Shown: one piece after another, positions 3,301-37,812 of the stretch
How positions within the stretch are numbered: the first letter of the stretch is position 1
Layout of the letters: every line of letters begins with the position of its first letter
NCBI GenBank assembly: GCA_963769975.1
Contig: CAVYNS010000003.1
Location: 32,551-96,550, forward strand
Direction of reading: 5' to 3'
DNA: 64,000 bases
Origin: an uncultured Chloroflexia bacterium
GTDB lineage: Bacteria > Chloroflexota > Dehalococcoidia > GIF9 > AB-539-J10
Translations under genes and position numbers: made by a program
The notes under the pieces: model-generated
Databases searched by the model: none
What the model was told of the DNA's origin: nothing
Seen by the model: only the letters and a program-made list of their open reading frames with translations

Positions 3301-4239
3301 ATGCTGCCACATGTTGATGACTTCTTATTAAATTTACAAGCCAACAAATACTCTTCCGAGACAATTTACAACTATGAACGGGATTTAAATGTTTTCAACA
3401 ATTTCCTGGATGAAAGCAACATTGAGTTTGGTAAGGTTGATAAGCGTGCTATCACCTACTACAAAGCATATTTAGTTTCGCGGGATCGCAAGACATCGAA
3501 ACTGGGAAAACGAGGTGAAAAACAGCTTGATTCCCGCTCTATAAACCGCATGCTGTCGGCGCTGAGAGCTTACCTGCGCTACTTAATTGACATTGATTAT
3601 CCTTGTCCCGTGCCGCCTGAAGCGGTCAAATTAACCAAGGCTGGGAAAAAACATCCCCAGGTGGCTGAGCTTAGGGATTTAATCAGACTGATTGAAGCGC
3701 CGAGTTCGTTAGAGTCAAATGTCAAAACGGCTTTAAGAAACCGCGTCATGCTGGAAGTGCTATTTGCCACTGGCATGCGCATCTCTGAGCTGTGCAATCT
3801 AAATCGTAGTCAAATCGATGATACCGGGCGGATTTTCATTACCGGCAAGGGTAGAAAGCAACGCTTTGTTTACTTAACTCCACGGGCTAAACAGCACCTG
3901 GATGCATATTTAGTGACTCGCCAGGATGATTGCCCTGCCCTTTTTATCCCTTATGCTGGCAGAAATGTCGCTAAATCAAGGAAGAGGATTTCCACTAATT
4001 ACCTTCAGGATAGAATTAAGAGATACCGAGAGAAATTAAGGATAAACGTCCCCACTTCAGCGCATTCCCTGAGACATGGTTTTGCTACTTATCTGGCTGA
4101 GGAAGGTGCTAATCCGGCAGCTCTTCAAATTCTTCTGGGCCATGAATCCCTGGATACCACCACTCGCTATGTTCATGCCTCCGATAAGTATGCTGAAGAG
4201 ACTCACCGCAAATACCATCCCCTGGCTAAGCCAGATTAA
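3301..4239 (+). CDS. Tyrosine site-specific recombinase, XerC/XerD family
   Basis: N-terminal SAM-like core-binding domain. Catalytic motifs ATGMRISEL, HSLRHGFATYL, LLGHESLDTTTRYVH. Confidence 0.9.
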   Translation: MLPHVDDFLLNLQANKYSSETIYNYERDLNVFNNFLDESNIEFGKVDKRAITYYKAYLVSRDRKTSKLGKRGEKQLDSRSINRMLSALRAYLRYLIDIDYPCPVPPEAVKLTKAGKKHPQVAELRDLIRLIEAPSSLESNVKTALRNRVMLEVLFATGMRISELCNLNRSQIDDTGRIFITGKGRKQRFVYLTPRAKQHLDAYLVTRQDDCPALFIPYAGRNVAKSRKRISTNYLQDRIKRYREKLRINVPTSAHSLRHGFATYLAEEGANPAALQILLGHESLDTTTRYVHASDKYAEETHRKYHPLAKPD

Positions 4240-5968: not shown

Positions 5969-7081
5969 TTATGACATTATTCTGCCCACGTATCTGGCAA
6001 TGGCAAGGGAGGCAGTGAGCCCCGGGGATTCTATCCCGATTAGATTTATTAAGCCCGGAAAGCCAAGTTTCTCTTCATGGGCAATAACGAAATCCCGGAA
6101 AGCTTCGTCTGGCCCCTGAAGCTTAGGCCTTATGCCAGCGGATTCTGGGGCTAAATCTTCAAGTTCCACAAGGGGAAGGAATCTCTTGGCCGAATTGTAG
6201 AAAGCTTGCTTATGCGTTTCATCAACCGCATAATCTATCGCTTCAACATAGTGGGCGCTGGGGCCAAGTAGTACTCTGCCATCGAGCGCCTGTCTCCAAT
6301 GGATTCCATGTCCAACTTGCTCTGGAGTGGGGTAGATGAGCCTGCTTATAAGATTTCTATATTTAGAGTCCAGACTGAAGTATTCGCCTTTGCAATAATG
6401 AAGCTTGTAACCTGCTTTAGCTATATCTATCCCGACAAGCTGGGCTATTTGGTCAGAGTTTAAGCCGGCGCAGTTCACGACAACATGGGCAACAAAAGCA
6501 GAAATTCCATCCCGGTCCTTTATTTGAACTTTGTATGTTGCCCCTGCCCGTTCTATTCCTATCACCTCAGTGCCGAAGACAAACTCAGCTCCTTTTTCCT
6601 TTGCTTGGTTGTAAAGAAACTTCAGTAAAGTGTGGGAATCCAAGATTCCACTGGAAGGGGATAGTAGCCCGGCTCTAGCCTCAATGTTTGGCTCGAGTTT
6701 CTTCACTTCTGTCCGGGAAAGGAGCATTAAATCATCAACGCCATTTTTTCTTCCCTGCTCGTAAAGTTTCTCAAGCTGGGTAGTCTCATTTTTGCTTGCC
6801 GCCACGATAATCTTGCCAGACTTCTTGTAGGCGATATTATGCTTGTCGCAAAGCTTGTAAAGCAGGCTTTTGCCTTCTACACAAAGCTTAGCCTTAAGAG
6901 AGTCCTCAGGATAGTAGATGCCAGCGTGAATTACTTCACTGTTTCTGCTACTGGTCTCGAGCCCAAAAGTGTGGTTCTTTTCAAAGACAAAAACCTCTTT
7001 TTTCCCTTGCGCGATTTCACGAGCCGTAGCCAAGCCGATCACTCCAGCACCAATGATTGCTATATCGATTTCGGCAAGCAT
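5969..7081 (-). CDS. FAD-dependent oxidoreductase, L-2-hydroxyglutarate oxidase/dehydrogenase (LhgO)-like
   Basis: N-terminal dinucleotide fold IAIIGAGVIGLATAREIA. SSRNSEVIHAGIYY motif and DAO-family length (370 aa). Confidence 0.75.
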   Translation of the reverse strand: MLAEIDIAIIGAGVIGLATAREIAQGKKEVFVFEKNHTFGLETSSRNSEVIHAGIYYPEDSLKAKLCVEGKSLLYKLCDKHNIAYKKSGKIIVAASKNETTQLEKLYEQGRKNGVDDLMLLSRTEVKKLEPNIEARAGLLSPSSGILDSHTLLKFLYNQAKEKGAEFVFGTEVIGIERAGATYKVQIKDRDGISAFVAHVVVNCAGLNSDQIAQLVGIDIAKAGYKLHYCKGEYFSLDSKYRNLISRLIYPTPEQVGHGIHWRQALDGRVLLGPSAHYVEAIDYAVDETHKQAFYNSAKRFLPLVELEDLAPESAGIRPKLQGPDEAFRDFVIAHEEKLGFPGLINLIGIESPGLTASLAIARYVGRIMS

Positions 7082-7349: not shown

Positions 7350-7559
7350 TTACAATCTCCCGGCGAGCCAGAACCGGCTCTTCGTTCTCATAACGTGATC
7401 CCGGCTCCAGGTCATACACATCACACGGCAAAGCCCACATCCATGACACTTGTCTGATTCAACATCGATCCGGTCCTCTGCTGACACGAGTGCACCTGAA
7501 GGACATGTCGGCACACAGAAGGGCTCGGCGCAGTGCTTCACACAAACCGTTTTAAGCAT
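7350..7559 (-). CDS. Small 4Fe-4S ferredoxin-domain protein
   Basis: Cys motifs CAEPFCVPTCP and CHGCGLCRVMC. It lies 12 nt downstream of the GltB-like gene on the same strand. Confidence 0.7.
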   Translation of the reverse strand: MLKTVCVKHCAEPFCVPTCPSGALVSAEDRIDVESDKCHGCGLCRVMCMTWSRDHVMRTKSRFWLAGRL

Positions 7560-7571
7560 CTTCCCTCCTTT

Positions 7572-9137
7572 TTATCCCAGAATCTTGTCTACTTGTTCAG
7601 CATCAGTTTCCATTATGTATAGGATACCAGAAACATCGGTAGCTTCCCGCGTGAGAGACATTATGTCGTTCCTGTCTACATATTTAAGGGCAAATTTGCG
7701 CTCCCCAGCCATAAGTTGCCTTAAGCCAGTAGCTAACCGGTCGTAGTAGGTATAGACGCCTATTGCCGCTGGTGGTATCCTGTCGAAATCCTTCCCGTAT
7801 TTCTCTTTAAGCTGTTCCGCGGCAGTAAAAGTACGCAACAACATCTCCTGATATTTTTCGCCCCGACCGTAAGTCTCTTCCATAAGCCGTCCATGCGTCT
7901 TCCCCACCATGGCTGAGGTAAGGGTAGAGCGCCCCATGCAGACTGCTTTTACATAAGGGGCTCCCAATGCTATAGCCTTGAATACTTGGTCTTCGAGAGC
8001 AATCCCGCCAGCAATGGCGCAACTCGGAACGAATTCCCCTTTCTCATCCAGCCGTTTAAGGAATTTATAGAGAAGGCTTTCCAGATAAACTGTGGGGATG
8101 CCCCACTCATTCATCATCCGCCACGGACTCATTCCAGTGCCACCGCCGGCACCATCCACGGTGAGGAGGTCTATTCTGGCCTCCGAGGCAAATTTCACGG
8201 CCCGAGCTAAATCCACCGGTCTATAGGCTCCGGTCTTAAGGGTGACATACTTGGCACCTACCTTCCTTAGCCTTGCCACTTCTTTCAGAAATAATTCCTC
8301 ATTTACCATTCCCAGACGAGAATGGCGTTCAAACTCCTCTATCCCGCCTAATTTATGGGCTTCTTGGACGTAGGGATTCTCAGGGTCAGGGATAACAATG
8401 TATCCCCTTCGTTTAAGCTGGAGTGCTCTTTCTAAGGTCGGCAGCTTAACCTCGCCCCCGATGTCTTTGGCTCCTTGTCCCCACTTTATCTCAATGCCTT
8501 CGACGCCGAGCTTTTCTAGGGCATACTCAGGAACACCAAGGCGAGTATCTTCGACATTTGCCTGGACCAGTAGCGTTCCGTAACCTTGATACCAGTCTTG
8601 ATATACTTTTACCCTTCTTGCCAGTTCTGGAGACCTCATGATCTTGCCGTTTTTGAACTCGGCATCGGGGTCCATGCCACAAACATTTTCCCCACAGACG
8701 AGGACCGCACCACATATAGCTATGGCGATAGCTGTGCCCTCCCAATTCACCCTGGCTATTTCTGTGGAACCCAGCGCCCCTGTGAAGAAAGGAACTTTCA
8801 TCTTAATCTTCTGTCTCTTGGCACCAATTTCAGTAGATAGGTCAACGGCGGTAAAGACAGCTTTATCCGGGTCGGCTTCGATGCCCACAGCCCCAACGCA
8901 AGTCCCCTGAATGTTGAAATGAGAGAAATCCACAGGGTAATCTTTTTCTGAGCCGGCAATGACCTTGCCAAAGGGCTGAGGATATATAATCTCCCTTCCC
9001 CTGAGCGCCGACCGTCCTACTTCGCAATAGCCAGGGCAACCATCAACGCAAGTAACGCACAGTCCTGAAATAGGTGCCGGTGCTACCCTAGTTGTGGTTA
9101 CCGTGGCTGCACTGGAGTTTGGCTTGCTTAAAGTCAT
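7572..9137 (-). CDS. FMN-binding glutamate synthase family protein (GltB synthase-domain paralogue 1)
   Basis: N-terminal Cys cluster CVTCVDGCPGYCEVG. GltS FMN-domain motifs LTVDGAGGGTGMSP and IAGGIALEDQVFKAIALGA. Confidence 0.85.
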   Translation of the reverse strand: MTLSKPNSSAATVTTTRVAPAPISGLCVTCVDGCPGYCEVGRSALRGREIIYPQPFGKVIAGSEKDYPVDFSHFNIQGTCVGAVGIEADPDKAVFTAVDLSTEIGAKRQKIKMKVPFFTGALGSTEIARVNWEGTAIAIAICGAVLVCGENVCGMDPDAEFKNGKIMRSPELARRVKVYQDWYQGYGTLLVQANVEDTRLGVPEYALEKLGVEGIEIKWGQGAKDIGGEVKLPTLERALQLKRRGYIVIPDPENPYVQEAHKLGGIEEFERHSRLGMVNEELFLKEVARLRKVGAKYVTLKTGAYRPVDLARAVKFASEARIDLLTVDGAGGGTGMSPWRMMNEWGIPTVYLESLLYKFLKRLDEKGEFVPSCAIAGGIALEDQVFKAIALGAPYVKAVCMGRSTLTSAMVGKTHGRLMEETYGRGEKYQEMLLRTFTAAEQLKEKYGKDFDRIPPAAIGVYTYYDRLATGLRQLMAGERKFALKYVDRNDIMSLTREATDVSGILYIMETDAEQVDKILG

Positions 9138-9149
9138 CTGTTACCTCCT

Positions 9150-9920
9150 TCACATTTTTACTGGTATTCCCTTTTCTTTCAGGTACCTTTTTGCCTCAGG
9201 TATAGATATTTCGCCAAAGTGGAAGATAGAGGCAGCCAAAACTGCTGAGGCCTTGCCAATTGTCACCGCTTCATAAAGATGCTCCAGTTTTCCTGCCCCG
9301 CCGGAGGCAGTGACTGGAATTTTGACGGCTTCAGCCACGGCTTTAGTCATCTCCAGGTCATATCCTTTCTTAGTGCCATCGGCATCTTTGCTGGTCAAGA
9401 GAATCTCACCAGCCCCCAGTTTCTCCACCTTCTTTGCCCATTCAACAATATCTATCCCTGTGGATTCGCTACCACTTTTGACTACCACTTCTAATCGAGG
9501 CAGGCTACTTCCAGGTGGATTTTTTCGCCCATCAATGGCAACAACAAGCTTCTGCTTACCAAATTTTCTCGAAGCCTCTTTTATAAGCTCAGGATTTCTT
9601 ACAGCCGCGGTATTGACTGAGACTTTATCTACGCCAAGGGCGAATAAGGCTTTCATATCCTCGGTATCCCTAATCCCGCCACCTACGGCAAAGGGGATGG
9701 TAACCTTTTTCGCTACCTTTTTGACCCATTCCAGCCTTGTTCCTCTGCTCTCCACAGTAGCGAAGATATCAAGGAAGACAAGCTCATCTGCCCCCTCTTG
9801 ACAATACGCCTGCGCCGCTTCCACAGGGTCACGTGCGTCCCGCAGGTTGATGAACCTCACTCCCTTTACCACCCTCCCTTCTTTCACATCCAGACAGGGT
9901 ATAATTCTTATCTCTTGCAT
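9150..9920 (-). CDS. hisF: Imidazole glycerol phosphate synthase cyclase subunit HisF, paralogue 1
   Basis: IIPCLDV (Asp11), VVAIDGRK (Asp130), LTSKDADGTKKGYD, ASGGAG, AASIFHFGE. One nt separates the upstream nrpR stop from this ATG. Confidence 0.85.
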   Translation of the reverse strand: MQEIRIIPCLDVKEGRVVKGVRFINLRDARDPVEAAQAYCQEGADELVFLDIFATVESRGTRLEWVKKVAKKVTIPFAVGGGIRDTEDMKALFALGVDKVSVNTAAVRNPELIKEASRKFGKQKLVVAIDGRKNPPGSSLPRLEVVVKSGSESTGIDIVEWAKKVEKLGAGEILLTSKDADGTKKGYDLEMTKAVAEAVKIPVTASGGAGKLEHLYEAVTIGKASAVLAASIFHFGEISIPEAKRYLKEKGIPVKM

Positions 9921-9921
9921 G

Positions 9922-10440
9922 TTATATCTCCTTGAATTCTATTAAGCGCTGATATTCCATAACGGTGCTCATGGCATGATTGTCCACTTCAATGCCGGAT
10001 TCAACAGCAGCAGCTACGGGATTAAGCCCCCCTGTAAGTATCATCCCGACCTTATTTAGTTCCACGGGAACTGCACACAGAGGCTTGCTTACCTCGCCCA
10101 TCATAAGCAATCCATCCAGATTAGATGCTTTCAATCTGGCAATGACCTTTTCTGCTGTGGTTTGGCATATAGCGGGTATTTCTCGAAAATTGGCTAAAAT
10201 CCTTCCTTGCCCTTCTCTAGCTACCTGCCCGACGCTAGTCATCCTGCTCGTGATGTATATCTCTGAAGGGTCTAAGGATGAGCCCGAATACTGAATAAGC
10301 TCCACGAATCGCAAGGGCTTGTGGTTCTTGATTTGAAGGATGCCACCAAACTTGGAATCCATGGGGACACCAGCTTTAAGCAAGGCACCATTAATTAAGA
10401 CGCTGCAGATAGTAGCGAGACCTATTTTACCTTGGGGCAC
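9922..10440 (-). CDS. nrpR: NrpR-type regulator, C-terminal part of the DUF128 domain (3' fragment of a split gene)
   Basis: DUF128-like sequence (GGILQIKNHKPLRFVELIQYSGSSLDPSEIY...). It starts 2 nt after the stop of the HTH-containing ORF. Adding one G to the G6 tract at 10447-10452 fuses the two frames. Confidence 0.7.
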   Translation of the reverse strand: MPQGKIGLATICSVLINGALLKAGVPMDSKFGGILQIKNHKPLRFVELIQYSGSSLDPSEIYITSRMTSVGQVAREGQGRILANFREIPAICQTTAEKVIARLKASNLDGLLMMGEVSKPLCAVPVELNKVGMILTGGLNPVAAAVESGIEVDNHAMSTVMEYQRLIEFKEI

Positions 10441-10442
10441 AA

Positions 10443-10913
10443 TTATCCCCCCAATTTTTCACCCTGATGGGCTACAGCTACAAGGTCACTAACGCAAATC
10501 CCTGCTTGAAAAACTCCTTTCATGACTTCAATCGCCTTCTTAAATTGCCTATCGGGGAAAAAGGAGATATTAACGGGAACCCTGCCTTGATGCTTATCTA
10601 AATCGAAGTCTGTTTGGTAGGCCAGAAGTTCAATTTTAGAAGCCACAAAACCAACCTTGTCGCTGACTAAAGCACTTTCTAATTCCTCTCGACCTAGTTG
10701 GGTAATTAATCTTCCATCCCTTCCCACACTCTCTGTAAACCCACGTTCATCCATTAGCTTAAGGTGGTATCTGACAGCTCGTTCGCTTAACTCGATGCCA
10801 TCATCCTTGAGATTGTGAGAAATAACCCTGGCGCCAACAGGTTCACTGGATTGACTCAGGGTCCTGAGAATAGCGATTGTCTTTCTTTCTACGTCCTGTG
10901 TTTCGAAGCCCAT
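10443..10913 (-). CDS. nrpR: NrpR-type nitrogen repressor, winged-HTH plus N-terminal part of DUF128 (5' fragment of a split gene)
   Basis: ERKTIAILRTLSQSSEPVGARVISHNLKDDGIELSERAVRYHLKLMDERGFTESVGRDGRLIT matches the NrpR wHTH. The ATG at 10913 has a GGAGG RBS 7 nt upstream. The longer ORF reaching 11048 has no RBS. Confidence 0.75.
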   Translation of the reverse strand: MGFETQDVERKTIAILRTLSQSSEPVGARVISHNLKDDGIELSERAVRYHLKLMDERGFTESVGRDGRLITQLGREELESALVSDKVGFVASKIELLAYQTDFDLDKHQGRVPVNISFFPDRQFKKAIEVMKGVFQAGICVSDLVAVAHQGEKLGG

Positions 10914-10940
10914 GGTAAACCTCCGATATCCTGGGTAATA

Positions 10941-10954
10941 GGAAACCGTTTTCC
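10941..10954 (-). promoter_or_regulatory. Candidate NrpR operator (GGAA-N6-TTCC palindrome)
   Basis: GGAAACCGTTTTCC on the + strand, GGAAAACGGTTTCC on the - strand. It directly abuts the predicted -10 element and lies 28 nt upstream of the nrpR ATG. Confidence 0.55.
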
Positions 10955-10984
10955 ACAATACCAGAGTGAAGTCATGCTTGTCAA
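10955..10984 (-). promoter_or_regulatory. Sigma70-like promoter of the nrpR-hisF-gltB-like-fdx operon
   Basis: On the minus strand: TTGACA (10984-10979), 18-nt spacer, TATTGT (10960-10955). Confidence 0.4.
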
Positions 10985-17319: not shown

Positions 17320-17991
17320 TCACAACTCCTTGAATTTGTATCCTATGTTTCGTACAGTCTCAATGAAGGTATGAGTTGAGTCCTCAATCTTGCTTCTCAG
17401 TCTCCTGATATGCACGTCTACTGTTCTGTCACCGCCGTAGTAGTCCCAGCCCCAAACTTTGTCCAGGAGAACATCTCGGGTAAAAACCTTTCCTTTATTG
17501 TTTGCGAGAAATTTGAGTAACTGATACTCCTTGAAGGTCAGTATTATCGGCTTACCATCAAGCGATACTTCGCACTTATCTGAATCTATAACTAAGTCGC
17601 CACATCTAATTATATCTTCGCTATCTATACTCTCTTTTTCCCTCAGAATTCGCTTTATCCTGGCTATAACCTCGGTTGCCTCACAGGGTTTGACTACGAA
17701 ATCATCTATAGCGTTGCTGGAACCGAGGCCATTGAGTTTCTCTCTGGAGAGGAGAGCGATAATGGGTATCTGTCTTTCTTGCCTTGTCCTTTGAGCCAGT
17801 TCCCATACTCCTGAACCAATTGTCGCTTCATCCGTATCTAGCAACAGCAGCGCCGGGGATTGCCCAGCAATTTGTTTGATTGTTTCATTATTCTGAGGAA
17901 CAATTAGGCAATCAAGACCTCCCTGGGCGAGATCCACCCTCAGTTTCCTTATTGGCTCGCTGTCATTGGCTATAATGAACACTCTAGACAA
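17320..17991 (-). CDS. OmpR/PhoB-family response regulator with no adjacent kinase
   Basis: Receiver domain (LLLLDTD, FVVKP) plus a winged-helix output domain (LTFKEYQLLKFL, VDVHIRRLRSKI, TVRNIGYKF). The acidic pocket reads ANDSE rather than DD(E/D). Confidence 0.8.
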   Translation of the reverse strand: MSRVFIIANDSEPIRKLRVDLAQGGLDCLIVPQNNETIKQIAGQSPALLLLDTDEATIGSGVWELAQRTRQERQIPIIALLSREKLNGLGSSNAIDDFVVKPCEATEVIARIKRILREKESIDSEDIIRCGDLVIDSDKCEVSLDGKPIILTFKEYQLLKFLANNKGKVFTRDVLLDKVWGWDYYGGDRTVDVHIRRLRSKIEDSTHTFIETVRNIGYKFKEL

Positions 17992-18113: not shown

Positions 18114-18860
18114 CTAATAAGCGTAGAGTCGGCCATAAGGGCGGAGGTAAAGGGGAAAAAGTTTAGTATATTTATATCTTAATAGCTCTTCGGCATCATA
18201 GTCAAAATGAGAAGCGAACTCACCTACGAGCTTCTTTAGAGTCAAGTAATCGTTTTCATTCAGTTCAGCGACACCTACCTCTTTGCCTAGCTGAAATTCC
18301 TGAATTTCCCCCCTCATATAGATAACGCCACCGTGCATGCCAGTGCCGATGAAATTCGCCTTATGGCGCTCTCCTTCTTTGAGGTTTAGCCCCAGGAGGA
18401 TTAGAACCCCACCTGCCATGTATTCGCCCAAAAAATCCTGCGCTGTGCCACCAATCACCACCGCTGGCTTTTTGTCTTGGTATTCTTTTATATGGATACC
18501 CGCCCGATAACCGACATCCTCTCTGACGAAGATCTTGCCTCCCCTGGCTGATAGTCCAAGGATATCGCCGGCATGGCCATGAATGATGATTTCTCCATTA
18601 TTCATAGTATTACCGCAGCCATCTTGAGCATTACCGTGGACAGTAATCCTGGGACCATCCATGAAAGCCCCTAAATCATTACCCGGGGTGCCGAATATTT
18701 CGATCTCCACTGGCTTGTCCAAATCTGTGCCGATGTATCTCTGTCCGTAGACATTTCGTAACTCGATCTTTTGAGTTCCGTTTGATACCACTTGCCTCAA
18801 TTTAGCATTGAGTTCTCGGTAAAAAATACCTTGGGCATCTATTGTTACAACTTCTTTCAT
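18114..18860 (-). CDS. Glutamate synthase alpha-subunit C-terminal (GXGXG) domain protein, archaeal-type GltB domain 3
   Basis: Repeated beta-helix GXGXG-type motifs: GTPGNDLGAFMDG, HGNAQDGCGNTMNNG, HGHAGDILG, ARGGKIFV. Confidence 0.85.
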   Translation of the reverse strand: MKEVVTIDAQGIFYRELNAKLRQVVSNGTQKIELRNVYGQRYIGTDLDKPVEIEIFGTPGNDLGAFMDGPRITVHGNAQDGCGNTMNNGEIIIHGHAGDILGLSARGGKIFVREDVGYRAGIHIKEYQDKKPAVVIGGTAQDFLGEYMAGGVLILLGLNLKEGERHKANFIGTGMHGGVIYMRGEIQEFQLGKEVGVAELNENDYLTLKKLVGEFASHFDYDAEELLRYKYTKLFPLYLRPYGRLYAY

Positions 18861-18861
18861 C

Positions 18862-20361
18862 TTAGCTTCCTGCCATTCGTACTCCGAGAATTTCTAATTC
18901 GGTATCGGTAAGCCCCACGCCTCTCAGGTGGAGGCGATTGCCACGGAGACTCTCTAAGGCATTGATACCCATGCCACCCAGTATGTCCTTAAGCTCAAGG
19001 CTCCAGCCACGAAGGAGATTAGACAGCCGTCTAGCTCCGATATCGGGGTTAACTCTCTTGGTTAGCCAGGGGTCTGGGGTACAAATGCCCCAGGCGCATT
19101 TCCCTGTATGGCATTGTTGGCATATGGTGCATCCCAGGGCAACGAGAGCGGCAGTTCCGATGTAGATGGCATCGGCGCCCAGGGCGATTGCTTTGGCTAC
19201 ATCACCACTATTTCTGATTCCGCCTGCGATGACAACAGAGGCCTGATTTCGGATGCCCTCTTGTCTGAGGCGGTCATCCACGGAAGCGAGAGCTAGTTCA
19301 ATGGGAATGCCAACGTTATCACGGATGATCTTGGGCGCAGCTCCCGTAGCGCCTCGCAAGCCATCGAGGACTATAATGTCTGCTCCTGCGCGTACCATGC
19401 CACTGGCGATAGCTGCTGAATTGTGAACAGCAGCAATCTTTACTGCTACTGGCTTGGTATAATTTGTGGCTTCCTTTAGGGCATAGACAAGCTGTGCCAG
19501 GTCCTCAATGGAGTAAATGTCGTGCTGCGGCGCTGGGGATAAAGCATCAGTTCCTCTGGGTATCATGCGGGTCATAGCTACCTCAGCGCTCACTTTTTCT
19601 CCGGGGAGATGTCCTCCAATGCCGGGCTTAGCCCCTTGCCCAATCTTAATTTCAACTATTCTGGCCACATTGAGGTATTCAGGATGAACGCCAAATCGTC
19701 CTGAAGCCACCTGGACTATAGTGTTATCTCCATATTTATAAAGCTTGGGATGAAGTCCACCTTCACCTGTATTCCACAAAGTTCCCATCTCAGCCGCGGC
19801 TCGGGCTAGGGATTCCTGCACATTCAGGCTTACTGCACCATAGGACATGGCGGAAAACATTACAGGAACCTCGAGCTTGACCTGGGGAGCCAGCTCTGTC
19901 TTGAGACCCACCGAGCTGAACTCTACCCTATCAGGTTTCTGCCCCAGATAGGTGGTCAATTCCATGGGTTCACGCAGAGGGTCAATAGAAGGATTGGTCA
20001 CCTGGCTGGCGTTGAGAACCAGATGGTCCCAATAAATGCGGTAGCTTTTATCATTCCCCATTCCGGTAAGAAGCATGCCGCCGGTCTCAGACTGCTTGAT
20101 AATGTCTTCGATAACCTCGGGACGCCAATTGTAGTTCTCTCTGTAATCCAGCGGATTTCTTCTAATGGTCAAAGCATTAGTGGGGCAAAAGACTACGCAA
20201 CGGTGGCAGCCAACGCAATTCTCTTCGCGGCTTCTTATTTCGTCGTCCTCAATATCATAAGAGTTAACGTCAAAGGTGCATTGATTGACACACACCTCGC
20301 ATCTAATACACCGAGAATCGTCTCTCTCCACTACGAATTTTGGTGGCAAATATGTCTTCAT
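18862..20361 (-). CDS. gltB: Glutamate synthase FMN/synthase domain with an N-terminal 2x[4Fe-4S] ferredoxin module (archaeal-type GltB domain 2)
   Basis: CIRCEVCVNQC and CVGCHRCVVFCP. Also GQGAKPGIGGHLPG, LDGLRGATGAAP, AGGIRNSGDVAKAIALGADA. Confidence 0.9.
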   Translation of the reverse strand: MKTYLPPKFVVERDDSRCIRCEVCVNQCTFDVNSYDIEDDEIRSREENCVGCHRCVVFCPTNALTIRRNPLDYRENYNWRPEVIEDIIKQSETGGMLLTGMGNDKSYRIYWDHLVLNASQVTNPSIDPLREPMELTTYLGQKPDRVEFSSVGLKTELAPQVKLEVPVMFSAMSYGAVSLNVQESLARAAAEMGTLWNTGEGGLHPKLYKYGDNTIVQVASGRFGVHPEYLNVARIVEIKIGQGAKPGIGGHLPGEKVSAEVAMTRMIPRGTDALSPAPQHDIYSIEDLAQLVYALKEATNYTKPVAVKIAAVHNSAAIASGMVRAGADIIVLDGLRGATGAAPKIIRDNVGIPIELALASVDDRLRQEGIRNQASVVIAGGIRNSGDVAKAIALGADAIYIGTAALVALGCTICQQCHTGKCAWGICTPDPWLTKRVNPDIGARRLSNLLRGWSLELKDILGGMGINALESLRGNRLHLRGVGLTDTELEILGVRMAGS

Positions 20362-20362
20362 C

Positions 20363-21133
20363 TTATCCGTTTCTTATAGGTATTCCTCTTTCAGCTAAGT
20401 AGTCTTTCGCCTGGCGAATGGAATGAATCTGGTAGTGAAAGATACTAGCTGCGAGAACAGCATCGGCTTTGCCTATGACTAAAGCCTTGTAGAGATGCTC
20501 CAAATTGCCGGCACCACCGCTGGCGATGACTGGCACAGTTACTCCCTCACTAATAGAGCGCGTCAATTCCAGGTCATATCCAGCCCGCTGCCCATCAGCA
20601 TCCCAGCTGGTGAGAAGCAACTCACCAGCACCCAGAGCTACAACCTGCATAGCCCACTCGATGGCGTCGATATCAGTAGGCTTTCGTCCCCCGTGGGTGC
20701 AGACCTCCCATTTAGCGTCGCCACTAGTTTTTAATCGCTTAGCATCAATAGCCACGACAATACATTGGCTGCCAAATTTCTCTGCCCCTTCAGTGATGAG
20801 CTTGGGATTCTGCACAGCGGCGGTATTGATGGATACTTTGTCAGCCCCTGCTTTTAGCATGCGTCGCATATCTTCAATGCTGCGCAAACCTCCACCAACT
20901 GTGAGGGGAATAAAAACCTGCTCGGAGACCCGCTCGACAATGTCAATCATGGTGTCACGTCCCTCCGGAGTAGCCCCGATGTCTAAAAAGACCAGCTCGT
21001 CAGCACCTTCCTTGTAGTAGAAAGCAGCTAGCTCCACAGGGTCGCCAGCATCTAGAAGACGAGTAAAGCTAGTGCCCTTAACTACTCGCCCTTGAGTAAC
21101 ATCAAGGCAAGGGATAATCCTTTTAGTCAACAT
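20363..21133 (-). CDS. hisF: Imidazole glycerol phosphate synthase cyclase subunit HisF, paralogue 2
   Basis: [42 protein letters not shown]. About 55% identical by eye to the copy at 9150-9920. Confidence 0.9.
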
Positions 21134-21174
21134 CTGCTTACACCTTCTACTTGCTAGGCTTCACACAACCTTTA

Positions 21175-22377
21175 TCAGAGATTGCCACGTCGCTTGTGCT
21201 CCTCGCAATGACGGGCAGGCTCAAGTGGCTTCTCCAAACTGCCGACAATAGGCTCACCACCCATGGGAATCCAGGCTCTGTCAAGGTCCGGGCAAACAAG
21301 ACGCATGGCTGATTCTTCTGAAGAAAGGTAAAGCACCGACCCTTTCACTCCTACGGTGAGGGGACGTAACTTTATCCTATCAGTAAGGCCAATCATCTCC
21401 CCTTGATGAGCAATGATCACAGTGAAAGGCCCGTTGAGCAAAAGGCTGCCATACACTTGGCGCAAAGTTCGGAAGATTCTTTGCTCCTCTGGGGAACAGC
21501 GCTCTATCTGACTCCATAGAGGAGGTGCTAATACCTTGGCGGCTATCTCTACCGGAAGGCCATGCCTGCGCATTAAAAGGTCAACGGCATAGGCTACTAC
21601 CTCGGTGTCGGTCTGCATAGTACAGTTGTAGCCAAACTGCTCCAAATACCGTCGATTTATGCCGTAGGAAGAGATTTCACCATTATGAACCACTGTCCAG
21701 TCCAAGATATTAAAGGGATGTGCTCCGCCCCACCAGCCAGGAGTGTTGGTGGGAAATCTGCCATGGGCTGTCCAGAGGTAACCTTCATACTGCTCCAGGC
21801 AAAAATATTCTGCTATCTCTTCGGGATAACCCACTCCCTTGAACACTCCCATATTCTTGCCGCTGGAAAAGACGAAGGCATCTTCTATCTGAGTATTGAT
21901 TTCCATGACCCTATCTACGACATACTCGTCTTCTGACTGGCTGTTAGTTCTCTCGTTTTGCACTTCAAGGAAATAACGCCACACCAGGGGAGGGTTCACT
22001 ATAGCCGGAATTGGCTTGGTGGGCACCTCTTCGGCATGAGGCACATGAAACTTTTGCTCGAGGAAATCTTCTACTCTGGCTTGCCCCTCGCGACTCAAAT
22101 ACATTATGTGGAAAGCATAACAGTTGGCATATTTGGGGAATAACCCATAAATAGCAAATCCACCACCCAGACCGTTACCCCGAACATGCATGTTGGCGAT
22201 AGCTTCTATTACCTCCTTACCTGAGAACCGCCTCCCCGCAGTATCCATCATTCCAAAGAGGGAACAGGCATCCATTACCTTATCATCGTGATAAAAGTTG
22301 TTTATCCTGCTTAACTCTTTCAATGGCTTAACCTCCTCAATGAGATAGTTATTCGCCAATAAAGGTTTCCTCTTCAC
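21175..22377 (-). CDS. Class II (Ntn) glutamine amidotransferase, archaeal-type GltB domain 1
   Basis: The candidate nucleophile is the Cys in MDACSLFGMMD. GNGLGGGF and HGRFPTNTPG motifs are present. A likelier TTG start at 22323 lies 8 nt after GAGGAGG, leaving a propeptide before the Cys. Confidence 0.85.
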   Translation of the reverse strand: MKRKPLLANNYLIEEVKPLKELSRINNFYHDDKVMDACSLFGMMDTAGRRFSGKEVIEAIANMHVRGNGLGGGFAIYGLFPKYANCYAFHIMYLSREGQARVEDFLEQKFHVPHAEEVPTKPIPAIVNPPLVWRYFLEVQNERTNSQSEDEYVVDRVMEINTQIEDAFVFSSGKNMGVFKGVGYPEEIAEYFCLEQYEGYLWTAHGRFPTNTPGWWGGAHPFNILDWTVVHNGEISSYGINRRYLEQFGYNCTMQTDTEVVAYAVDLLMRRHGLPVEIAAKVLAPPLWSQIERCSPEEQRIFRTLRQVYGSLLLNGPFTVIIAHQGEMIGLTDRIKLRPLTVGVKGSVLYLSSEESAMRLVCPDLDRAWIPMGGEPIVGSLEKPLEPARHCEEHKRRGNL

Positions 22378-23671
22378 TTTGAATAGATGGAGCGCTTTGA
22401 GGAAGCAACCCTGGCGGTGTTTCCAACAGTTCTTGCCACAATGCCCGGGGGAAAAACGCCAGGCTGAAATTATCCGCCAAAAGCGATTGTTTAAAGCTTT
22501 CTACATTGACTCTATCCCTCATTAGACCGAAAATTATGCCCGACTTTTCAATATTTTCCACGAATACCATTCCTACTATGAGATTATCTTTCAAAATGAC
22601 CTTTTGGTATTTATTGCTCTCTTGCCTGCTGATAACCTCGTAGCCGTCGTCATTGGGTGCTGTAGGCATTCCCGCTGAGGTGATGGCAATTCCAAAATAG
22701 TTGAGCGAATTCATAGTTGTGCCGCCGGGGTATTTGGTGGGGATGCCAGCCATGTTATAACCGGCAATCCTGCCTCCGGTATAAGCATTTGGCCAGATGG
22801 GGGTGAGTCTGTTCTCCTCATACACAAAATCATATGCCTCAGCCACATCCCCACAGGCATAAACACCTGGGTGGGTTGTAGCCATATGATAATCCACTAC
22901 TACGCCTCGGCTCACTTTTAACTTGGCATCTAGTGCGAGCTCTGGGCGTGGTGATACTCCAATAGCCACCAACACTAAGTCGCAAGGCATCGTCTCCCCA
23001 CTATCTAAAGTGACTCCTTGAACTGTCTCTCTTCCATTGATTTCAACCACAGTATGACCTGTAATGATTTCCACGCCAGCTCGTGTAAGAACCTCTTCAG
23101 CCATTAGAGATGCTTGTTCGTCGAGGATGGTATTTAATATTCTCTCTTTCATTTCCACTACTATTACATCAACTCCTCGCTTCACTAGAGCTTCGGTTAC
23201 GCTAATTCCGATAAGCCCCCCGCCAATAACTACTGCCTTTCTGGCGTTATCCAAGAATCTGTCAACTGCTTTAGCATCATCAAGGTTGATGAAGGTAAAA
23301 ACACCTCTTTTGTCACTCCCTTTCATCTTAGGGAAGATGGGTTTCCCTCCTACGGCGAGTAGGAGCTTTTCCCAGGCAATCTGCTCGTTGTCTTCTAACC
23401 AGGCAGTCCGGTCATTTAGCTTTAAGTGCGTCACTTTCTTGCCAGGGAGAAAGAGAATATTGTTCTGTTCATAGAAGTCGAGGGGACGGAATAATATTCC
23501 TTCCAGGGTTCGTTCTTCTGCCAGATATTTTGAGATAAGAGGGCGTGAGTAGACAGGATAAGGCTCTTCGGAAACGATAGTTAGAGCACCTTCCTTATCT
23601 AGCTGGCGTATGGCTTCAGCAGCTCCAATGCCGCCAGCCGAATTTCCTATGATTAAGTATCTAGTTTGCAT
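22349..23671 (-). CDS. FAD/NAD(P)-dependent pyridine nucleotide-disulfide-family oxidoreductase (candidate electron-input subunit)
   Basis: Two Rossmann motifs (IIGNSAGGIGAAEA; VVIGGGLIGISVTEAL) and ACGDVAE. Confidence 0.8.
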   Translation of the reverse strand: MQTRYLIIGNSAGGIGAAEAIRQLDKEGALTIVSEEPYPVYSRPLISKYLAEERTLEGILFRPLDFYEQNNILFLPGKKVTHLKLNDRTAWLEDNEQIAWEKLLLAVGGKPIFPKMKGSDKRGVFTFINLDDAKAVDRFLDNARKAVVIGGGLIGISVTEALVKRGVDVIVVEMKERILNTILDEQASLMAEEVLTRAGVEIITGHTVVEINGRETVQGVTLDSGETMPCDLVLVAIGVSPRPELALDAKLKVSRGVVVDYHMATTHPGVYACGDVAEAYDFVYEENRLTPIWPNAYTGGRIAGYNMAGIPTKYPGGTTMNSLNYFGIAITSAGMPTAPNDDGYEVISRQESNKYQKVILKDNLIVGMVFVENIEKSGIIFGLMRDRVNVESFKQSLLADNFSLAFFPRALWQELLETPPGLLPQSAPSIQSEEETFIGE

Positions 23672-23677
23672 TTATTT

Positions 23678-24301
23678 CTACCTCGTGCCTAGCGCTATCT
23701 TCAAAAAGTTAGCGTACATCTTTAATCCATGCTCACCACTTTTCTCAGGGTGGAACTGAGTTGCGACCAGGTTATCCTTGATTACCACGCTGCACATAGA
23801 TACACCATAGCTTGTCGTGCCCGCCACGACCGACATGTCTTCAGGCTCAGCATAGAAGCTGTGGACAAAGTAAAAGTTCGCTTCATCCGGTATGCCCTCA
23901 AAAACAGGATGGCTAACCCTTTGTTTCACCTGATTCCAACCTATATGAGGGATTTTAAGTCCTCGGGGCAGTCTTTTTACCTTCCCGGGAATTACTCCCA
24001 AACACTCGTGCCAGCCTCCTTCCTCAGTTCGTGAAAACAGTATCTGTAGCCCCACGCAAATGGCGAAGAGTGGTCGTCCTTGTTGTATCAGTTGACGAAT
24101 AGCATCGGTCATACCTAATTTCTCCAAGCTATTCATGGTATCGGCAGCAGCACCAACACCAGGGAGAATAACCGCAGCAGCATCAAGCACTTCGCAGGGG
24201 TCGCTTGTTACCTTTGGGTGGTAGCCCAGTTTCGTAAGGGCGTTAGCGACACTGCGCAGATTTCCCGCACCGTAGTCGATTATGGCGATTACTTTATCCA
24301 T
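23678..24301 (-). CDS. hisH: Imidazole glycerol phosphate synthase glutaminase subunit HisH
   Basis: IAIIDYGAGNLRSV, LPGVGA, FAICVGLQIL (catalytic Cys), IGWN, QFHPEKS. The ATG at 24301 lies 1 nt after the ferredoxin stop. Confidence 0.9.
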   Translation of the reverse strand: MDKVIAIIDYGAGNLRSVANALTKLGYHPKVTSDPCEVLDAAAVILPGVGAAADTMNSLEKLGMTDAIRQLIQQGRPLFAICVGLQILFSRTEEGGWHECLGVIPGKVKRLPRGLKIPHIGWNQVKQRVSHPVFEGIPDEANFYFVHSFYAEPEDMSVVAGTTSYGVSMCSVVIKDNLVATQFHPEKSGEHGLKMYANFLKIALGTR

Positions 24302-24302
24302 G

Positions 24303-24752
24303 TCATTCCTTTTCCTCATCTGCGCCCAGTACAAGCGCTTCATTAGGACAGTCAATTACACAGGCAGGTATCTCCCGACTGGGACAAAGGTCGCACTTAA
24401 TCACAGTTTTGCTATTCAGGTCGCGACTGAGCGCCCCGTAAGGGCAGGCTACTATGCATGTCCAGCAGCCAATACACTTTTCCATATCAACGGTAACCTT
24501 GTCACTTTTAGGCTCTTTATGCATCGCACCTGTAAGACAAGAATAAACACACCAGGGCTCGGCGCAGTGGCGACATTGAATCGGAAAAGAAATCTCTATA
24601 TTCCTCTCCACACGCACACGAGGCAAAGGACGCGGAGTCTCTCTTTTAAATGCTTTGATTGGGTCCTTAGATTGAGAGTGCTCCACTCGGCAATAAACTT
24701 CGCACAGTCCACAACCAATGCAGACCTCTTCCTTAACATATACTCTTCTCAT
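24303..24752 (-). CDS. 4Fe-4S dicluster (polyferredoxin-like) protein, first gene of the GOGAT operon
   Basis: Four Cys clusters: CIGCGLCEVYC, CRHCAEPWCVYSC, CIGCWTCIVACP, CDLCPSREIPACVIDCP. Confidence 0.8.
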   Translation of the reverse strand: MRRVYVKEEVCIGCGLCEVYCRVEHSQSKDPIKAFKRETPRPLPRVRVERNIEISFPIQCRHCAEPWCVYSCLTGAMHKEPKSDKVTVDMEKCIGCWTCIVACPYGALSRDLNSKTVIKCDLCPSREIPACVIDCPNEALVLGADEEKE

Positions 24753-24805
24753 GCTCCAAATCCTCTTAATTATCTAATATACGTCGGTAACCGTTTACCT
24801 ACATT

Positions 24806-24834
24806 ATCCTAGCAACATAGAATTATTTTGTCAA
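24806..24834 (-). promoter_or_regulatory. Sigma70-like promoter for the fdx-hisH-...-gltB operon
   Basis: On the minus strand: TTGACA (24834-24829), 17-nt spacer, TAGGAT (24811-24806). It lies about 50 nt upstream of the ATG at 24752. Confidence 0.4.
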
Positions 24835-25099
24835 CATGTAACAAACATTTAACCTGCTTGTAATATTTTGGAAACATGGGAATTTTATGCTTTGGTTAAG
24901 AAATAAGCATGGACATAAACCAAATTATAGAGCTGTGGAGAGGCTTATCACCCCGTTTGGCTAAAGCTGTCCCTGATCAAGAACTTGCCGAGGATGAACA
25001 TACTGATGGAAAAAAGAACGATGAAGATAGCGAGGACAAAACAGTTGACCCTATCGGAAGCCATCATGAAGAAGACGATGTTTAGAAAAGGGATTTCAA

Positions 25100-28528: not shown

Positions 28529-29125
28529 TTATTTTAACTCTCTTTTTAACTTCTCCATTACTCTGGCAAACTCTTGGCTGTATCTTTTTTCCTGGTTGGA
28601 GAGGAAATCTTGCCATTGAGGAAGCTGTTTTATCACCTCATCAACAGTGAGTTGAACGACCATGGTGTTTTGTCCTTGCTGAACTTGTTTTACCCTTAGT
28701 CGGGGATCTCTTTCCACTTCAGCTCTTATGCCATTGTAGGCTTGCTCTATTTCGGCGCTATACCTCTTTTGTAGGTCCTCCATCCGCTTTAAATTTAGCT
28801 CAATTATGGAAGTGTTCTTTTCTTTCTTGATAGTCTCTATGGCTAAAATTCCATCCCTTTTCCTTTGCAGCTCGGCTGGAGTACTCCCAAAACTAAGCGA
28901 ATCTACCAGTCTCACCTGGGCTTCTCTCAGGAGGGATGGTTTGCCTTCTTCTTTTAACCTCTTCCACAAGCTTTCGGGGTCAAGCTGACCTTGGTAAAAC
29001 TCCGAGAGTAGAGAGTTCACCTTCTCGGAATCTACCATCTTCTCCTTTTCTTCTCGGGTCAACTCGCCAATCTTGGCTAATCTTTCTCTAGCGATTAGTG
29101 AAAGGTCTTTCTCCCAATTTCCCAT
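28529..29125 (-). CDS. Hypothetical coiled-coil protein
   Basis: 198-aa ORF rich in charged heptad-like sequence. No recognisable family. It is divergent from the PAC2 gene pair. Confidence 0.5.
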   Translation of the reverse strand: MGNWEKDLSLIARERLAKIGELTREEKEKMVDSEKVNSLLSEFYQGQLDPESLWKRLKEEGKPSLLREAQVRLVDSLSFGSTPAELQRKRDGILAIETIKKEKNTSIIELNLKRMEDLQKRYSAEIEQAYNGIRAEVERDPRLRVKQVQQGQNTMVVQLTVDEVIKQLPQWQDFLSNQEKRYSQEFARVMEKLKRELK

Positions 29126-29216
29126 TGACTATCTCCTCATAAATAAGCGACGGCTATTTTACACCACGGCAGACGAGAAGATAGTATATAATATGAAATC
29201 AGATTTGGGGAGTGCG

Positions 29217-37657: not shown

Positions 37658-37812
37658 ATATTATTATTTTATGCCTGGGATGCTGGTTTAACAAACTTGT
37701 TTATGGCCGCTGAGATGTTATCCTCTCCCTTGTTTTTCCCTTGGATAACCCCTTGGTCAAGGCTTGAGTCTCATCCCTGCCCTTTGCCGCATATAAGTCC
37801 GGAAAAAATTTT

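Follow-up and report, generated by a model that had tools for sequence, protein, structure and literature searches.

A bacterial NrpR-family regulator with conserved predicted operators at glutamate-forming operons of Dehalococcoidia

Does a nitrogen regulator shared with methanogens sit at bacterial promoters in an uncultured Chloroflexia genome, and if so, at which ones? To our knowledge, NrpR has been studied experimentally in methanogens only. For bacterial NrpR we found nothing in the literature beyond a 2007 COG table, and a curated regulon prediction, e.g. in RegPrecise, may exist. The window analyzed here, a stretch of 64,000 nucleotides, contains an nrpR gene in a nitrogen locus, and our best reading (to which we assign a probability of roughly 0.75) is that its product is a repressor under its own control, probably with 2-oxoglutarate as effector, which would occlude the sigma-70 promoters of glutamate-forming operons. 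The features on which this reading is built are collected in Table 1.

Table 1. Features of the window that bear on the predicted NrpR regulon.
Feature	Position	Strand	Evidence or remark
Sigma-70-type nrpR promoter	10955..10984	-	TTGACA 10984-10979, 18-nt spacer, TG-extended TATTGT 10960-10955
O1, GGAAAACGGTTTCC, predicted NrpR autoregulatory site	10941..10954	.	PWM score 24.0, best in the window
RBS of nrpR, GGAGG	10920..10924	-	Spaced 6 nt from the ATG (10913); read from sequence
nrpR (one gene, interrupted here)	9922..10913	-	330-aa NrpRI-type regulator: wHTH and a single NRD
G6 homopolymer, frameshift site in nrpR	10447..10452	-	G7 in near-identical contigs
hisF paralogue 1, next after nrpR (gap 1 nt)	9150..9920	-	TIGR00735, 347.6 bits vs cutoff 294.55
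FMN-binding glutamate synthase family protein, 521 aa (gltS-like)	7572..9137	-	Pfam Glu_synthase 5.1e-17; NCBI/JGI names
Ferredoxin, small 4Fe-4S type, 69 aa; closes the nrpR operon	7350..7559	-	Weak Fer4-type Pfam matches, below curated cutoffs
Sigma-70-type promoter, split-GOGAT operon	24806..24834	-	TTGACA, 17-nt spacer, TG-extended TAGGAT; promoter scan
O2, GGTAAACGGTTACC, second predicted NrpR site	24786..24799	.	PWM score 20.2
Predicted NrpR target operon (split GOGAT)	18114..24752	-	Pfam, NCBIfam
fdx149, first gene of split-GOGAT operon	24752-24303	-	Pfam/NCBIfam operon annotation
hisH	about 24290-23678	-	NCBIfam 222.8 vs cutoff 105.4
NAD(P)H oxidoreductase	23671-22349	-	
GATase class II	22377-21175	-	
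hisF paralogue 2	21133-20363	-	NCBIfam 388.5 vs cutoff 294.55
Fer4 and GltB FMN domain	20361-18862	-	
GXGXG domain, last of split-GOGAT operon	18860-18114	-	

A first-pass annotation made from the sequence had described two ORFs with a winged HTH followed by a DUF128/NrpR domain. The domain assignment of these minus-strand ORFs was borne out by profile searches. The first ORF (10913..10446, 156 aa) matches HTH_12 over residues 13-78 (2.7e-21; 75.7 bits against a cutoff of 21.4) and also covers positions 1-67 of the NRD1_2 profile, while the second (10440..9922, 172 aa) takes up that profile at positions 72-236 (3e-61). Because a single NRD1_2 profile is shared out across both ORFs, they are halves of one domain and not two genes; the coordinates and sequences given earlier were correct, but the ORFs do not represent separate genes, as the annotation's own mention of a "repaired protein" had hinted. 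Adding one G yields a protein that is 100% identical to protein P0001 and has one NRD by Pfam, not two, with an ATG start that agrees with 330-aa homologues. Residues 97-330 of this repaired protein match the structure 3NEK in a sequence search (E = 3.9e-27), which settles the NRD fold family at the level of sequence similarity. By these profile matches the protein is a member of the NrpR family (PF08461 wHTH plus PF01995 NRD). Compared with the two-NRD NrpRs of methanogens, its wHTH is 50-56% identical and retains a nearly invariant ERAVRYHLK.LDE.GFT...G..GR.IT pattern; the sensor domain shares just 24-31% identity with methanogen NRDs, which leaves room for a different effector.

The interruption lies in a run of G residues. 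Over 12,993 aligned nt the only difference between the window and contig L001 is G6 in place of G7, and G7 is also carried by contigs L002 (99.5% identical, 33 SNPs) and L003; all three contigs encode P0001 intact. The window's nrpR therefore has a -1 frameshift in place of an intact ORF, whereas of 73 orthologous loci matched over the full length, 72 have a single intact nrpR ORF and one, L076, is apparently frameshifted. The normal allele of the population is intact, and the 1-nt deletion in the G7 run reflects either a mistake made in sequencing or assembly or a null allele of very recent origin. We lean against the latter, a fresh pseudogene created by slippage in the G7 tract, while giving it appreciable weight; if it were real, both operator-bearing operons would be constitutively derepressed in this strain. 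G runs are slippage-prone, nothing but G6/G7 differs over the 13 kb, and longer homopolymers there (A8, C8) are the same in the window and L001, which argues against a generally homopolymer-error-prone assembly. On the other hand, G7 is found in three independent contigs from different samples, including the strain with 33 SNPs, and the operator, the promoter and the downstream coding sequence show no decay, agreeing exactly with L001. A single miscalled homopolymer in 13 kb would, moreover, be nothing unusual for consensus errors, and the G tract is not conserved in orthologues. Given this lack of conservation (the longest G runs are 2-4 in 44 of 51 orthologues scored), a dedicated phase-variation device was rejected. 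We give almost no credence to the idea that the two ORFs form a true split system of DNA-binding and sensor subunits, even though NrpR is encoded by two genes in Methanosarcina, one of them an NRD-only NrpRII partner of NrpRI (bioRxiv 10.1101/2020.06.15.153874). Here the interruption is within the NRD (between positions 67 and 72 of the 238-position profile) and not where one domain meets another. The second ORF lacks a separate RBS and starts with a GTG 2 nt past the stop of the first, and the gene is unsplit in the 72 intact orthologues and the three near-identical contigs. Our advice for annotation is to call one nrpR gene and flag the frameshift, instead of calling two ORFs.

The nrpR promoter matches the sigma-70 pattern at 10 of 12 positions with a TG before the -10 element, and its -35 element has at least 5/6 matches in 60 of 67 orthologous promoters. 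O1 directly adjoins the -10 box, and both elements lie where the first-pass annotation had placed them. The palindrome is a perfect copy of the GGAAN6TTCC consensus published for Methanococcus maripaludis (PMC2723118), as had been proposed, and O2 is a GGTA/TACC variant of it. When nrpR promoters from 73 orthologous Dehalococcoidia loci were scored together with that of the window, an O1-type element was found 0-7 nt past the -10 box in 67 of the 74, with no recognizable site in the remaining 7. Information content at the site is 1.42 bits per position, compared with 0.2-0.4 in the drifting flanks. The palindrome is therefore conserved upstream of orthologous operons, and its conserved position on nrpR's own promoter implies the autoregulation that had been suggested from the window.

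Motif counts within the window carry much less weight. The genome scan that had been suggested was applied to the window, where strict GGAA-N6-TTCC occurs 4 times against 1.67 expected, a marginal excess (5 of 100 shuffles reach 4), and the three copies other than O1 are all inside ORFs; the relaxed GGNA-N6-TNCC form is not enriched (20 vs 18 expected). The strict motif alone is thus weak evidence. Because the strict motif was marginal and the loose one unenriched, single-genome counting was dropped in favor of a PWM built from orthologous promoters. The 14-bp consensus of the clade is GGnAAAC(G/A)GTTnCC, which leaves positions 3 and 12 unconstrained and of which GGAA/TTCC is only one of the permitted forms. 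Symmetric covariation of these two positions was rejected: they are complementary in only 13 of 34 distinct sites and are therefore simply degenerate. The tight clade consensus GGNAAANNGTTNCC occurs twice in the window against 0.14 expected, each copy immediately following a sigma-70-like promoter. Conservation across genomes is the decisive evidence for the predicted operators.

By the PWM, O2 is the only strong site in the 64 kb besides O1 (shuffles gave 0.48 sites scoring at least 15). It starts 6 nt downstream of the -10 element of the fdx149 promoter, is kept in 69 of 79 orthologous fdx149 promoters (10 have no recognizable site), and is also present in loci L018 and L019. Its information content is 1.85 bits compared with 0.75 in the flanks, and the geometry of TTGACA, -10 element and operator is maintained in loci L080-L159. 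The earlier statement that there is no second perfect operator in the amt/GOGAT or glnA upstream regions is thus right insofar as O2 is not GGAA/TTCC, but a second site does exist. The genes behind it, fdx-hisH-oxidoreductase-GATase2-hisF-gltB(FMN)-GXGXG, make up a split archaeal-type GOGAT operon, which is the predicted target. This operon adjoins amtB-glnB-glnA, and its gene order was found again in metagenome loci.

The operon headed by nrpR has the composition nrpR-hisF-gltB-like-fdx described in the first-pass annotation, with intergenic gaps of 1, 12 and 12 nt that agree with the reported 1-12 nt. The ferredoxin gene has a 12-nt gap on its upstream side and one of 268 nt after it, along with a TTGACT-18-GATAAT promoter (7159-7130). 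The order nrpR-hisF-gltS-like recurs in most of the 73 Dehalococcoidia genomes: hisF comes right after nrpR in about 50, and the gltS-like gene is syntenic with nrpR in most. For the gltS-like protein there was no PDB sequence match and no NCBIfam model, and the ferredoxin-type NCBIfam matches of the 69-aa protein are also below cutoff. The locus has a second hisF in an operon with an FMN glutamate-synthase-like protein and a ferredoxin.

Sites of this type are specific in their placement. A survey of 23 gene classes found them solely before nrpR, fdx149 and genes on the intergenic regions shared with these; the scored sites of pdxT (10/16) and nadE (5/19) were attributed to intergenic regions shared with nrpR. 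In related loci a site is upstream of amtB in 1 of 26 cases and of glnA in 4 of 46, and in the window the amtB-glnB and glnA upstream regions have no PWM site of at least 11 bits. NrpR sites at amtB, glnA, the DAO/asnB-like unit and purSL/purQ were rejected because none lies in their own upstream regions. The picture is coherent in other lineages: loci L048 and L052 have a perfect operator before a glutamate dehydrogenase gene beside nrpR, a Syntrophobacterales MAG has GGCAAATGATTGCC on an nrpR-gdh operon, and in Methanosphaera the sole strict site in 9.7 kb is upstream of glnA, next to nrpR. No nif genes were found in the window. The predicted targets are GOGAT-type, gltS-like and GDH genes, not a nif/glnA/amtB-glnK regulon, and these bacteria appear to center their control of nitrogen on enzymes leading from 2-oxoglutarate to glutamate, not on glnA/amtB. 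A second full-length NrpR paralogue was detected in two related Dehalococcoidia loci (L046 and L067).

These observations suggest the following mechanism. A dimer or higher oligomer of NrpR would bind the 14-bp palindrome GGnAAAC(G/A)GTTnCC, which spans the transcription start, 0-7 nt past the -10 element, at two sigma-70-type promoters, and would thereby block RNA polymerase at the nrpR-hisF-FMN glutamate-synthase-like-ferredoxin operon and the split-GOGAT operon. That NrpR is the protein acting at O1 and O2, and that it acts as a repressor, is what we infer from the placement of the operators across the transcription start and their co-occurrence with nrpR. By analogy with archaeal NrpR, for which 2-oxoglutarate-dependent release is described (PMC4902934; PMC9765008), 2-oxoglutarate accumulating under nitrogen limitation may release the protein. 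Release would turn on the enzymes that make glutamate from 2-oxoglutarate and would also induce NrpR, giving negative feedback.

The palindromes could instead be bound by a different regulator, such as the OmpR-family protein encoded at 17320-17991 or an unlinked factor, with NrpR acting elsewhere or not on DNA here, but we regard this as quite improbable. OmpR-type regulators usually act on direct repeats, unlike the 14-bp palindrome seen here. Moreover, the site tracks nrpR in the 67 of 74 promoters scored and in a deltaproteobacterial MAG, and the DNA-binding domain is the best-conserved part of NrpR across the divide between bacteria and archaea. The site fits the published NrpR half-sites, although positions 3 and 12 vary and the conserved central AAAC.GTT is not in the published archaeal consensus (PMC2723118), which would favor another protein. 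A near-perfect inverted repeat 27-60 nt from the start codon might also be read as a hairpin of the 5' leader RNA with an effect on stability, attenuation or translation, and not as a DNA operator. We consider this highly improbable and rejected it: an element 0-7 nt past the -10 box has its left arm at or before the transcription start and mostly absent from the RNA, the minimum free energy fold of the leader leaves the arms unpaired and does not exceed shuffled sequences in stability (z = 0.31), a search of Rfam at the leader gave no family match, and the variable positions do not covary.

How widespread is the arrangement? The NrpR family comprises 791 50%-identity clusters among 1.84 billion representatives, in keeping with the earlier remark that bacterial homologues are rare. 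However, more than 6,800 90%-clusters match the window's NrpR; the best 120 of these are 83-100% identical, and the named ones among them are Dehalococcoidia or Chloroflexi MAGs. The 76 genome loci retrieved with the same query are all Dehalococcoidia/Chloroflexota-type MAGs except for L039, an "uncultured delta proteobacterium", and a Syntrophobacterales homologue is present. As judged from these searches, the family is small overall, yet ubiquitous in Dehalococcoidia. The same type of DNA-binding domain and nearly the same operator occur with textbook bacterial -35/-10 promoters in more than 70 Dehalococcoidia species, which would be a neat natural example of a single repressor family working with archaeal and bacterial transcription machineries. 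It also provides a concrete predicted regulon (two operators with their two operons, to which some lineages add GDH) for a globally abundant, mostly uncultured sediment lineage. A bolder proposal, which we think unlikely, is that the NrpR shared with methanogens was rewired in Dehalococcoidia and some Syntrophobacterales into an autoregulated sigma-70 occluder of 2-oxoglutarate-consuming, glutamate-forming enzymes. These would include a conserved, as yet undescribed module with hisH and hisF inside a split-GOGAT operon and a second hisF joined in an operon with the FMN glutamate-synthase-like protein and the ferredoxin. In its strongest form, the HisF modules would be a new kind of ammonia-channelling glutamate-forming complex instead of ordinary histidine biosynthesis genes.

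How does the predicted repressor compare with known systems? Lie, Wood & Leigh (2005) reportedly placed the archaeal operator immediately past the core promoter element, a position resembling that seen here. The M. maripaludis repressor of nif, glnA and glnK-amtB (MMP0607) has the same Pfam N-terminal wHTH and NRD fold family, and palindromic GGAA/TTCC-type half-sites 6 bp apart are common to both systems (PMC2723118), with binding being predicted here. The M. maripaludis protein differs in having two NRDs, in working at TATA/BRE promoters as opposed to sigma-70 -35/-10 promoters, and in an operator consensus that lacks the constrained central AAAC.GTT of Dehalococcoidia. Autoregulation is predicted here, whereas archaeal nrpR expression is reportedly unresponsive to nitrogen (PMC9765008). 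The predicted targets are GOGAT/hisHF and gltS-like genes, with GDH in some lineages, and not amtB/glnA as in methanogens. Closer in architecture are the NrpRI proteins of Methanosarcina mazei and M. acetivorans, which likewise combine a wHTH and one NRD within some 330 aa; JGI applies the label "global nitrogen regulator NrpRI" to some close homologues of the window's NrpR. The NRD-only partner of Methanosarcina has no counterpart in the 64-kb window, where tblastn found no second NRD. MJ0159 of Methanocaldococcus jannaschii, the NrpR-like protein of 3NEK, aligns through its NRD; the deposited chain of 238 residues is NRD only, without an HTH, and its identity to the window's NrpR is low.

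Several unrelated bacterial regulators, namely NtcA, actinobacterial GlnR, Bacillus TnrA/GlnR and AmtR, control ammonium-assimilation genes by nitrogen status, and NtcA also senses 2-oxoglutarate. They share this physiological logic with NrpR but belong to other families (CRP, OmpR, MerR and TetR) and use other operators. Their regulons center on glnA and amtB, the very genes that are without an NrpR-type site here. The NrpR family and the GGAA-N6-TTCC type of operator were already known, and this bacterial NrpR with its conserved predicted operators is, in our view, a solid but not revolutionary addition.

The two ORFs at 10913-9922, which the first-pass annotation had read as a winged helix-turn-helix (wHTH) followed by an NrpR domain, are biologically one gene, whether the frameshift between them is an error or a mutation. 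Profile searches supported both assignments: ORF 1 matched the Pfam models HTH_12 (2.7e-21) and NRD1_2 (positions 1-67), and ORF 2 matched NRD1_2 positions 72-236 (3e-61), so the break falls inside one domain. With one G added to the run at 10447-10452, the reading frame yields a 330-aa protein with 100% identity to P0001, a database protein whose unbroken gene is found on three metagenome contigs, each from a different sample. One of these, L001, shows no mismatch to the window across 12,993 aligned nt and just one gap, namely seven Gs (G7) in the contig versus six (G6) in the window. A second, L002, carries 33 SNPs (99.5% identity) and likewise has G7, so the ancestral state is G7. The gene is a single ORF in 72 of the 73 orthologous loci with a full-length match from other Dehalococcoidia species. 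At the exception, L076, the orthologue (6001-7009) is apparently frameshifted, with stops in translation, making it a second broken copy, in a draft MAG assembly. The G run is present in the closest relatives only and is thus not a conserved switch. At A8 and C8 homopolymers in the same 13 kb the window and L001 assemblies agree. We lean modestly toward a consensus error rather than a very recent slippage mutation as the source of G6. The intact orthologues, together with a break that falls inside a domain, exclude a true NrpRI/NrpRII-like split pair. The earlier coordinates, palindrome, -10 box and 1-12-nt gaps of nrpR-hisF-gltS-like-fdx (gltS-like being a 521-aa FMN-binding glutamate synthase family protein) were all correct.

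The palindrome at the nrpR promoter (O1) is, as judged from promoter comparison, a phylogenetic footprint. For each of the 73 full-length-match orthologues, 120 nt of upstream sequence was taken; with the window this gave 74 nrpR promoters, and an iterated PWM located a related 14-mer in 67 of them, so that the palindrome proved to be conserved upstream of orthologous operons. Perfect GGAA-N6-TTCC was present in 25/73 orthologues. The consensus is GGnAAAC(G/A)GTTnCC, with G1, G2, A4, G9, T10, T11, C13 and C14 nearly invariant and positions 3/12 free (A/T, C/G, T/A, C/T and C/A were all seen). Among promoters with a site, the operator starts 0-7 nt past a -10-like hexamer, and 60/67 have a -35 matching TTGACA at 5/6 positions or better. 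Information content across 66 distinct promoters was 1.42 bits per position versus 0.2-0.4 in the flanks. Within the window, strict GGAA-N6-TTCC is barely above chance (4 versus 1.67 expected) and the loose form (GGNA-N6-TNCC) is not above chance; the tight clade consensus occurs twice versus 0.14 expected.

The first-pass annotation found no second perfect operator upstream of amt/GOGAT or glnA, and missed one of the latter occurrences. This site, O2, is not of the perfect GGAA-N6-TTCC form; with a PWM score of 20.2 it is the sole other strong site in 64 kb, and shuffled sequence gives 0.48 sites at a score of at least 15. It lies 33 nt upstream of an operon divergent from amtB-glnB-glnA. This operon encodes a split glutamate synthase of archaeal style, with hisH and hisF set between its genes. 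Ferredoxin (fdx149) orthologues at 79-96% identity were collected from 80 metagenome loci, 79 of them with enough upstream sequence, and GG(T/C)AAAC(G/A)GTT(A/G)CC follows the -10 box in 69/79 (O2 information content 1.85 bits versus about 0.75 in the flanks). Genomes L018 and L019 likewise have the operator at fdx149, with both operons within 6 kb. The operator is absent from the ten fdx149 promoters at L111, L119, L121, L129, L139, L140, L142, L153, L154 and L157, most of which share a different upstream sequence with a ACCAACCGTTTGGC-like element ~91 nt before the start codon. Across L004-L159, a CC is conserved ~6-7 nt past the nrpR operator (GGTTTCCtattaCC; window about 10929-10935) and (G/T)ACGT right after the fdx149 operator (window about 24780-24785); these bases may mark an extra half-site or a signal in the initially transcribed region.

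Features of the nrpR and split-GOGAT operons and their surroundings (window positions)
Feature	Position	Strand	Remarks
nrpR -35, TTGACA	10984-10979	minus	then 18-nt spacer
nrpR -10, TATTGT	10960-10955	minus	TG-extended
O1 (predicted), GGAAAACGGTTTCC	10954-10941	minus (as read)	directly after -10
nrpR RBS, GGAGG	10924-10920	minus	
nrpR ORF 1	10913 (ATG) to 10445-10443 (stop)	minus	
nrpR ORF 2	10440-9922	minus	frame other than ORF 1
hisF of nrpR operon	9150-9920		
O2 promoter, TTGACA-17-TG-TAGGAT	24834-24806		O2 6 nt downstream
O2 (predicted), GGTAAACGGTTACC	24786-24799		
O2 operon gene 1, 4Fe-4S ferredoxin (fdx149)		minus	
Gene 2, HisH	about 24290-23678	minus	TIGR01855, 222.8 bits vs 105.4 cutoff
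Gene 3, pyridine-nucleotide oxidoreductase		minus	
Gene 4, class-II amidotransferase domain		minus	
Gene 5, second HisF	20363-21133	minus	388.5 bits vs 294.55 cutoff
Gene 6, Fer4 + GltB-FMN protein		minus	
Gene 7, GXGXG protein		minus	
OmpR-family regulator	17320-17991	minus	122 nt downstream of GOGAT operon
Acidic 58-aa ORF	24909-25085	plus	
Glutamine/ammonia cluster	4263-28102		asnB-like, pdxT, purS-purL, purQ, glutamine-dependent nadE, hisH, two hisF, split GOGAT, amtB, glnB, glnA
Tyrosine recombinase	3301-4239	plus	Phage_integrase + SAM-like N domain; adjoins asnB-like gene
Tandem PAC2-family proteins (two)	29073-30958	plus	PF09754, 1.3e-34 and 4.3e-26; downstream of glnA
Ribosomal protein L10 leader	34668-34781	minus	Rfam, 49.1 bits
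RNase P class A RNA, bacterial	37812-38206	minus	Rfam, 287 bits
tRNA	39412-39500	plus	Rfam

Both operons lie among densely clustered genes for handling glutamine and ammonia, and the order nadE-purQ-purSL-pdxT / nrpR-hisF-gltS-like is largely retained in related genomes. The hisF paralogues are 58% identical, both above the NCBIfam hisF cutoff, each within a predicted NrpR-controlled operon beside a glutamate-synthase-type FMN protein; hisH is in the GOGAT operon, not in a his operon. The very acidic ORF fills the gap between O2 and amtB. Trans_reg_C is the sole Pfam domain of the OmpR-family protein at E <= 1e-5, and its whole length aligns to the NCBIfam models PhoB or MtrA, far below cutoff; its receiver-like half keeps the LLLLD aspartate, with N-D replacing the acidic pair. 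The GltB-GXGXG-OmpR-like adjacency also occurs in L007, and the protein is possibly an orphan nitrogen regulator of amtB and glnA. The recombinase is probably a resident Xer-type enzyme rather than a mobile-element marker, since its adjacency to the asnB-like gene is conserved in L004, L005 and L020.

To delimit the regulon, the 220 nt preceding each recognisable gene were surveyed at all 153 loci. Sites preceded nrpR in 64/75 cases (at least 12 bits) and fdx149 in 69/79, those at pdxT and nadE occurring only where the nrpR intergenic region is shared. AmtB had a site in only 1/26 loci and GlnA in only 4/46, with essentially none upstream of hisF, gltS-like, GATase, PII, purSL or purQ. L048 and L052 have a perfect operator ahead of a glutamate dehydrogenase gene that adjoins nrpR, and an nrpR-gdh operon in a Syntrophobacterales MAG has GGCAAATGATTGCC just before the start codon. 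The predicted bacterial targets share one property, the consumption of 2-oxoglutarate to make glutamate. In Methanosphaera, in line with the archaeal model, strict GGAA-N6-TTCC occurs just once in 9.7 kb, upstream of glnA and next to nrpR.

The palindromes are unlikely to act as RNA hairpins instead: their left arm falls on or ahead of the transcription start, shuffled leaders fold as well as the real one (z = 0.31), and no covariation links positions 3 and 12. Binding by a protein other than NrpR is disfavoured as well, since the site accompanies nrpR in two bacterial phyla and fits the archaeal half-sites.

Its domains and alignments place the window protein firmly in the NrpR family, with the NrpRI architecture (wHTH plus one NRD). 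It agrees with the family in both sequence and operator; a regulon of nif, glnA and amtB was not found for it. The NRD matches the NrpR-like solved structure 3NEK (3.9e-27). Against two-NRD NrpRs labelled Methanosphaera and Methanobrevibacter, identity is 50-56% in the wHTH and only 24-31% in the NRD, with a near-invariant stretch, ERAVRYHLK.LDE.GFT...G..GR.IT; this strong conservation of the DNA-reading domain is in keeping with the conserved operator. More than 6,800 90%-clusters match the repaired protein, and the best 120 of them share 83-100% identity with it. A scan of species-representative genomes gave 76 loci; the annotation is of Dehalococcoidia/Chloroflexota type in all but L039, whose title is "uncultured delta proteobacterium". 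A homologue (57% identity) is also present in at least one Syntrophobacterales MAG. The suggestion that bacterial homologues are rare is right for sequence diversity (791 matches at E <= 1e-3 and 179 at E <= 1e-30 among 1.84 billion 50%-identity representatives) and wrong for Dehalococcoidia, where the family is ubiquitous. Some Dehalococcoidia have a second full-length paralogue near the first, as in L046 (4490-5497, minus; HTH_12 + NRD1_2, 37% identity to the window protein) and L067, with copies either side of an OmpR-like gene. Public annotation pipelines already call these bacterial proteins NrpR; the literature searched contained no analysis of bacterial NrpR or its sites, and earlier in-silico predictions may have been made.

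The NrpR of methanogens binds operators of the form GGAAN6TTCC, located at nif, glnA and glnK-amtB (PMC2723118), and is released once 2-oxoglutarate rises under nitrogen limitation (PMC4902934; PMC9765008). O1 and O2 span the position where transcription from sigma-70 promoters is expected to begin. On the simplest reading, NrpR would bind both and repress sterically, and 2-oxoglutarate would relieve repression. The GOGAT-type, gltS-like and GDH enzymes would thereby be induced by their substrate, and nrpR would be under negative autoregulation. The interest of the system lies in an operator conserved across domains, its bacterial promoter context, the predicted autoregulation and the shifted predicted regulon: GOGAT-type, gltS-like and GDH enzymes here, as opposed to nif, glnA and glnK-amtB in methanogens. 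The predicted autoregulation would likewise depart from archaeal systems, where nrpR expression reportedly does not respond to nitrogen (PMC9765008).
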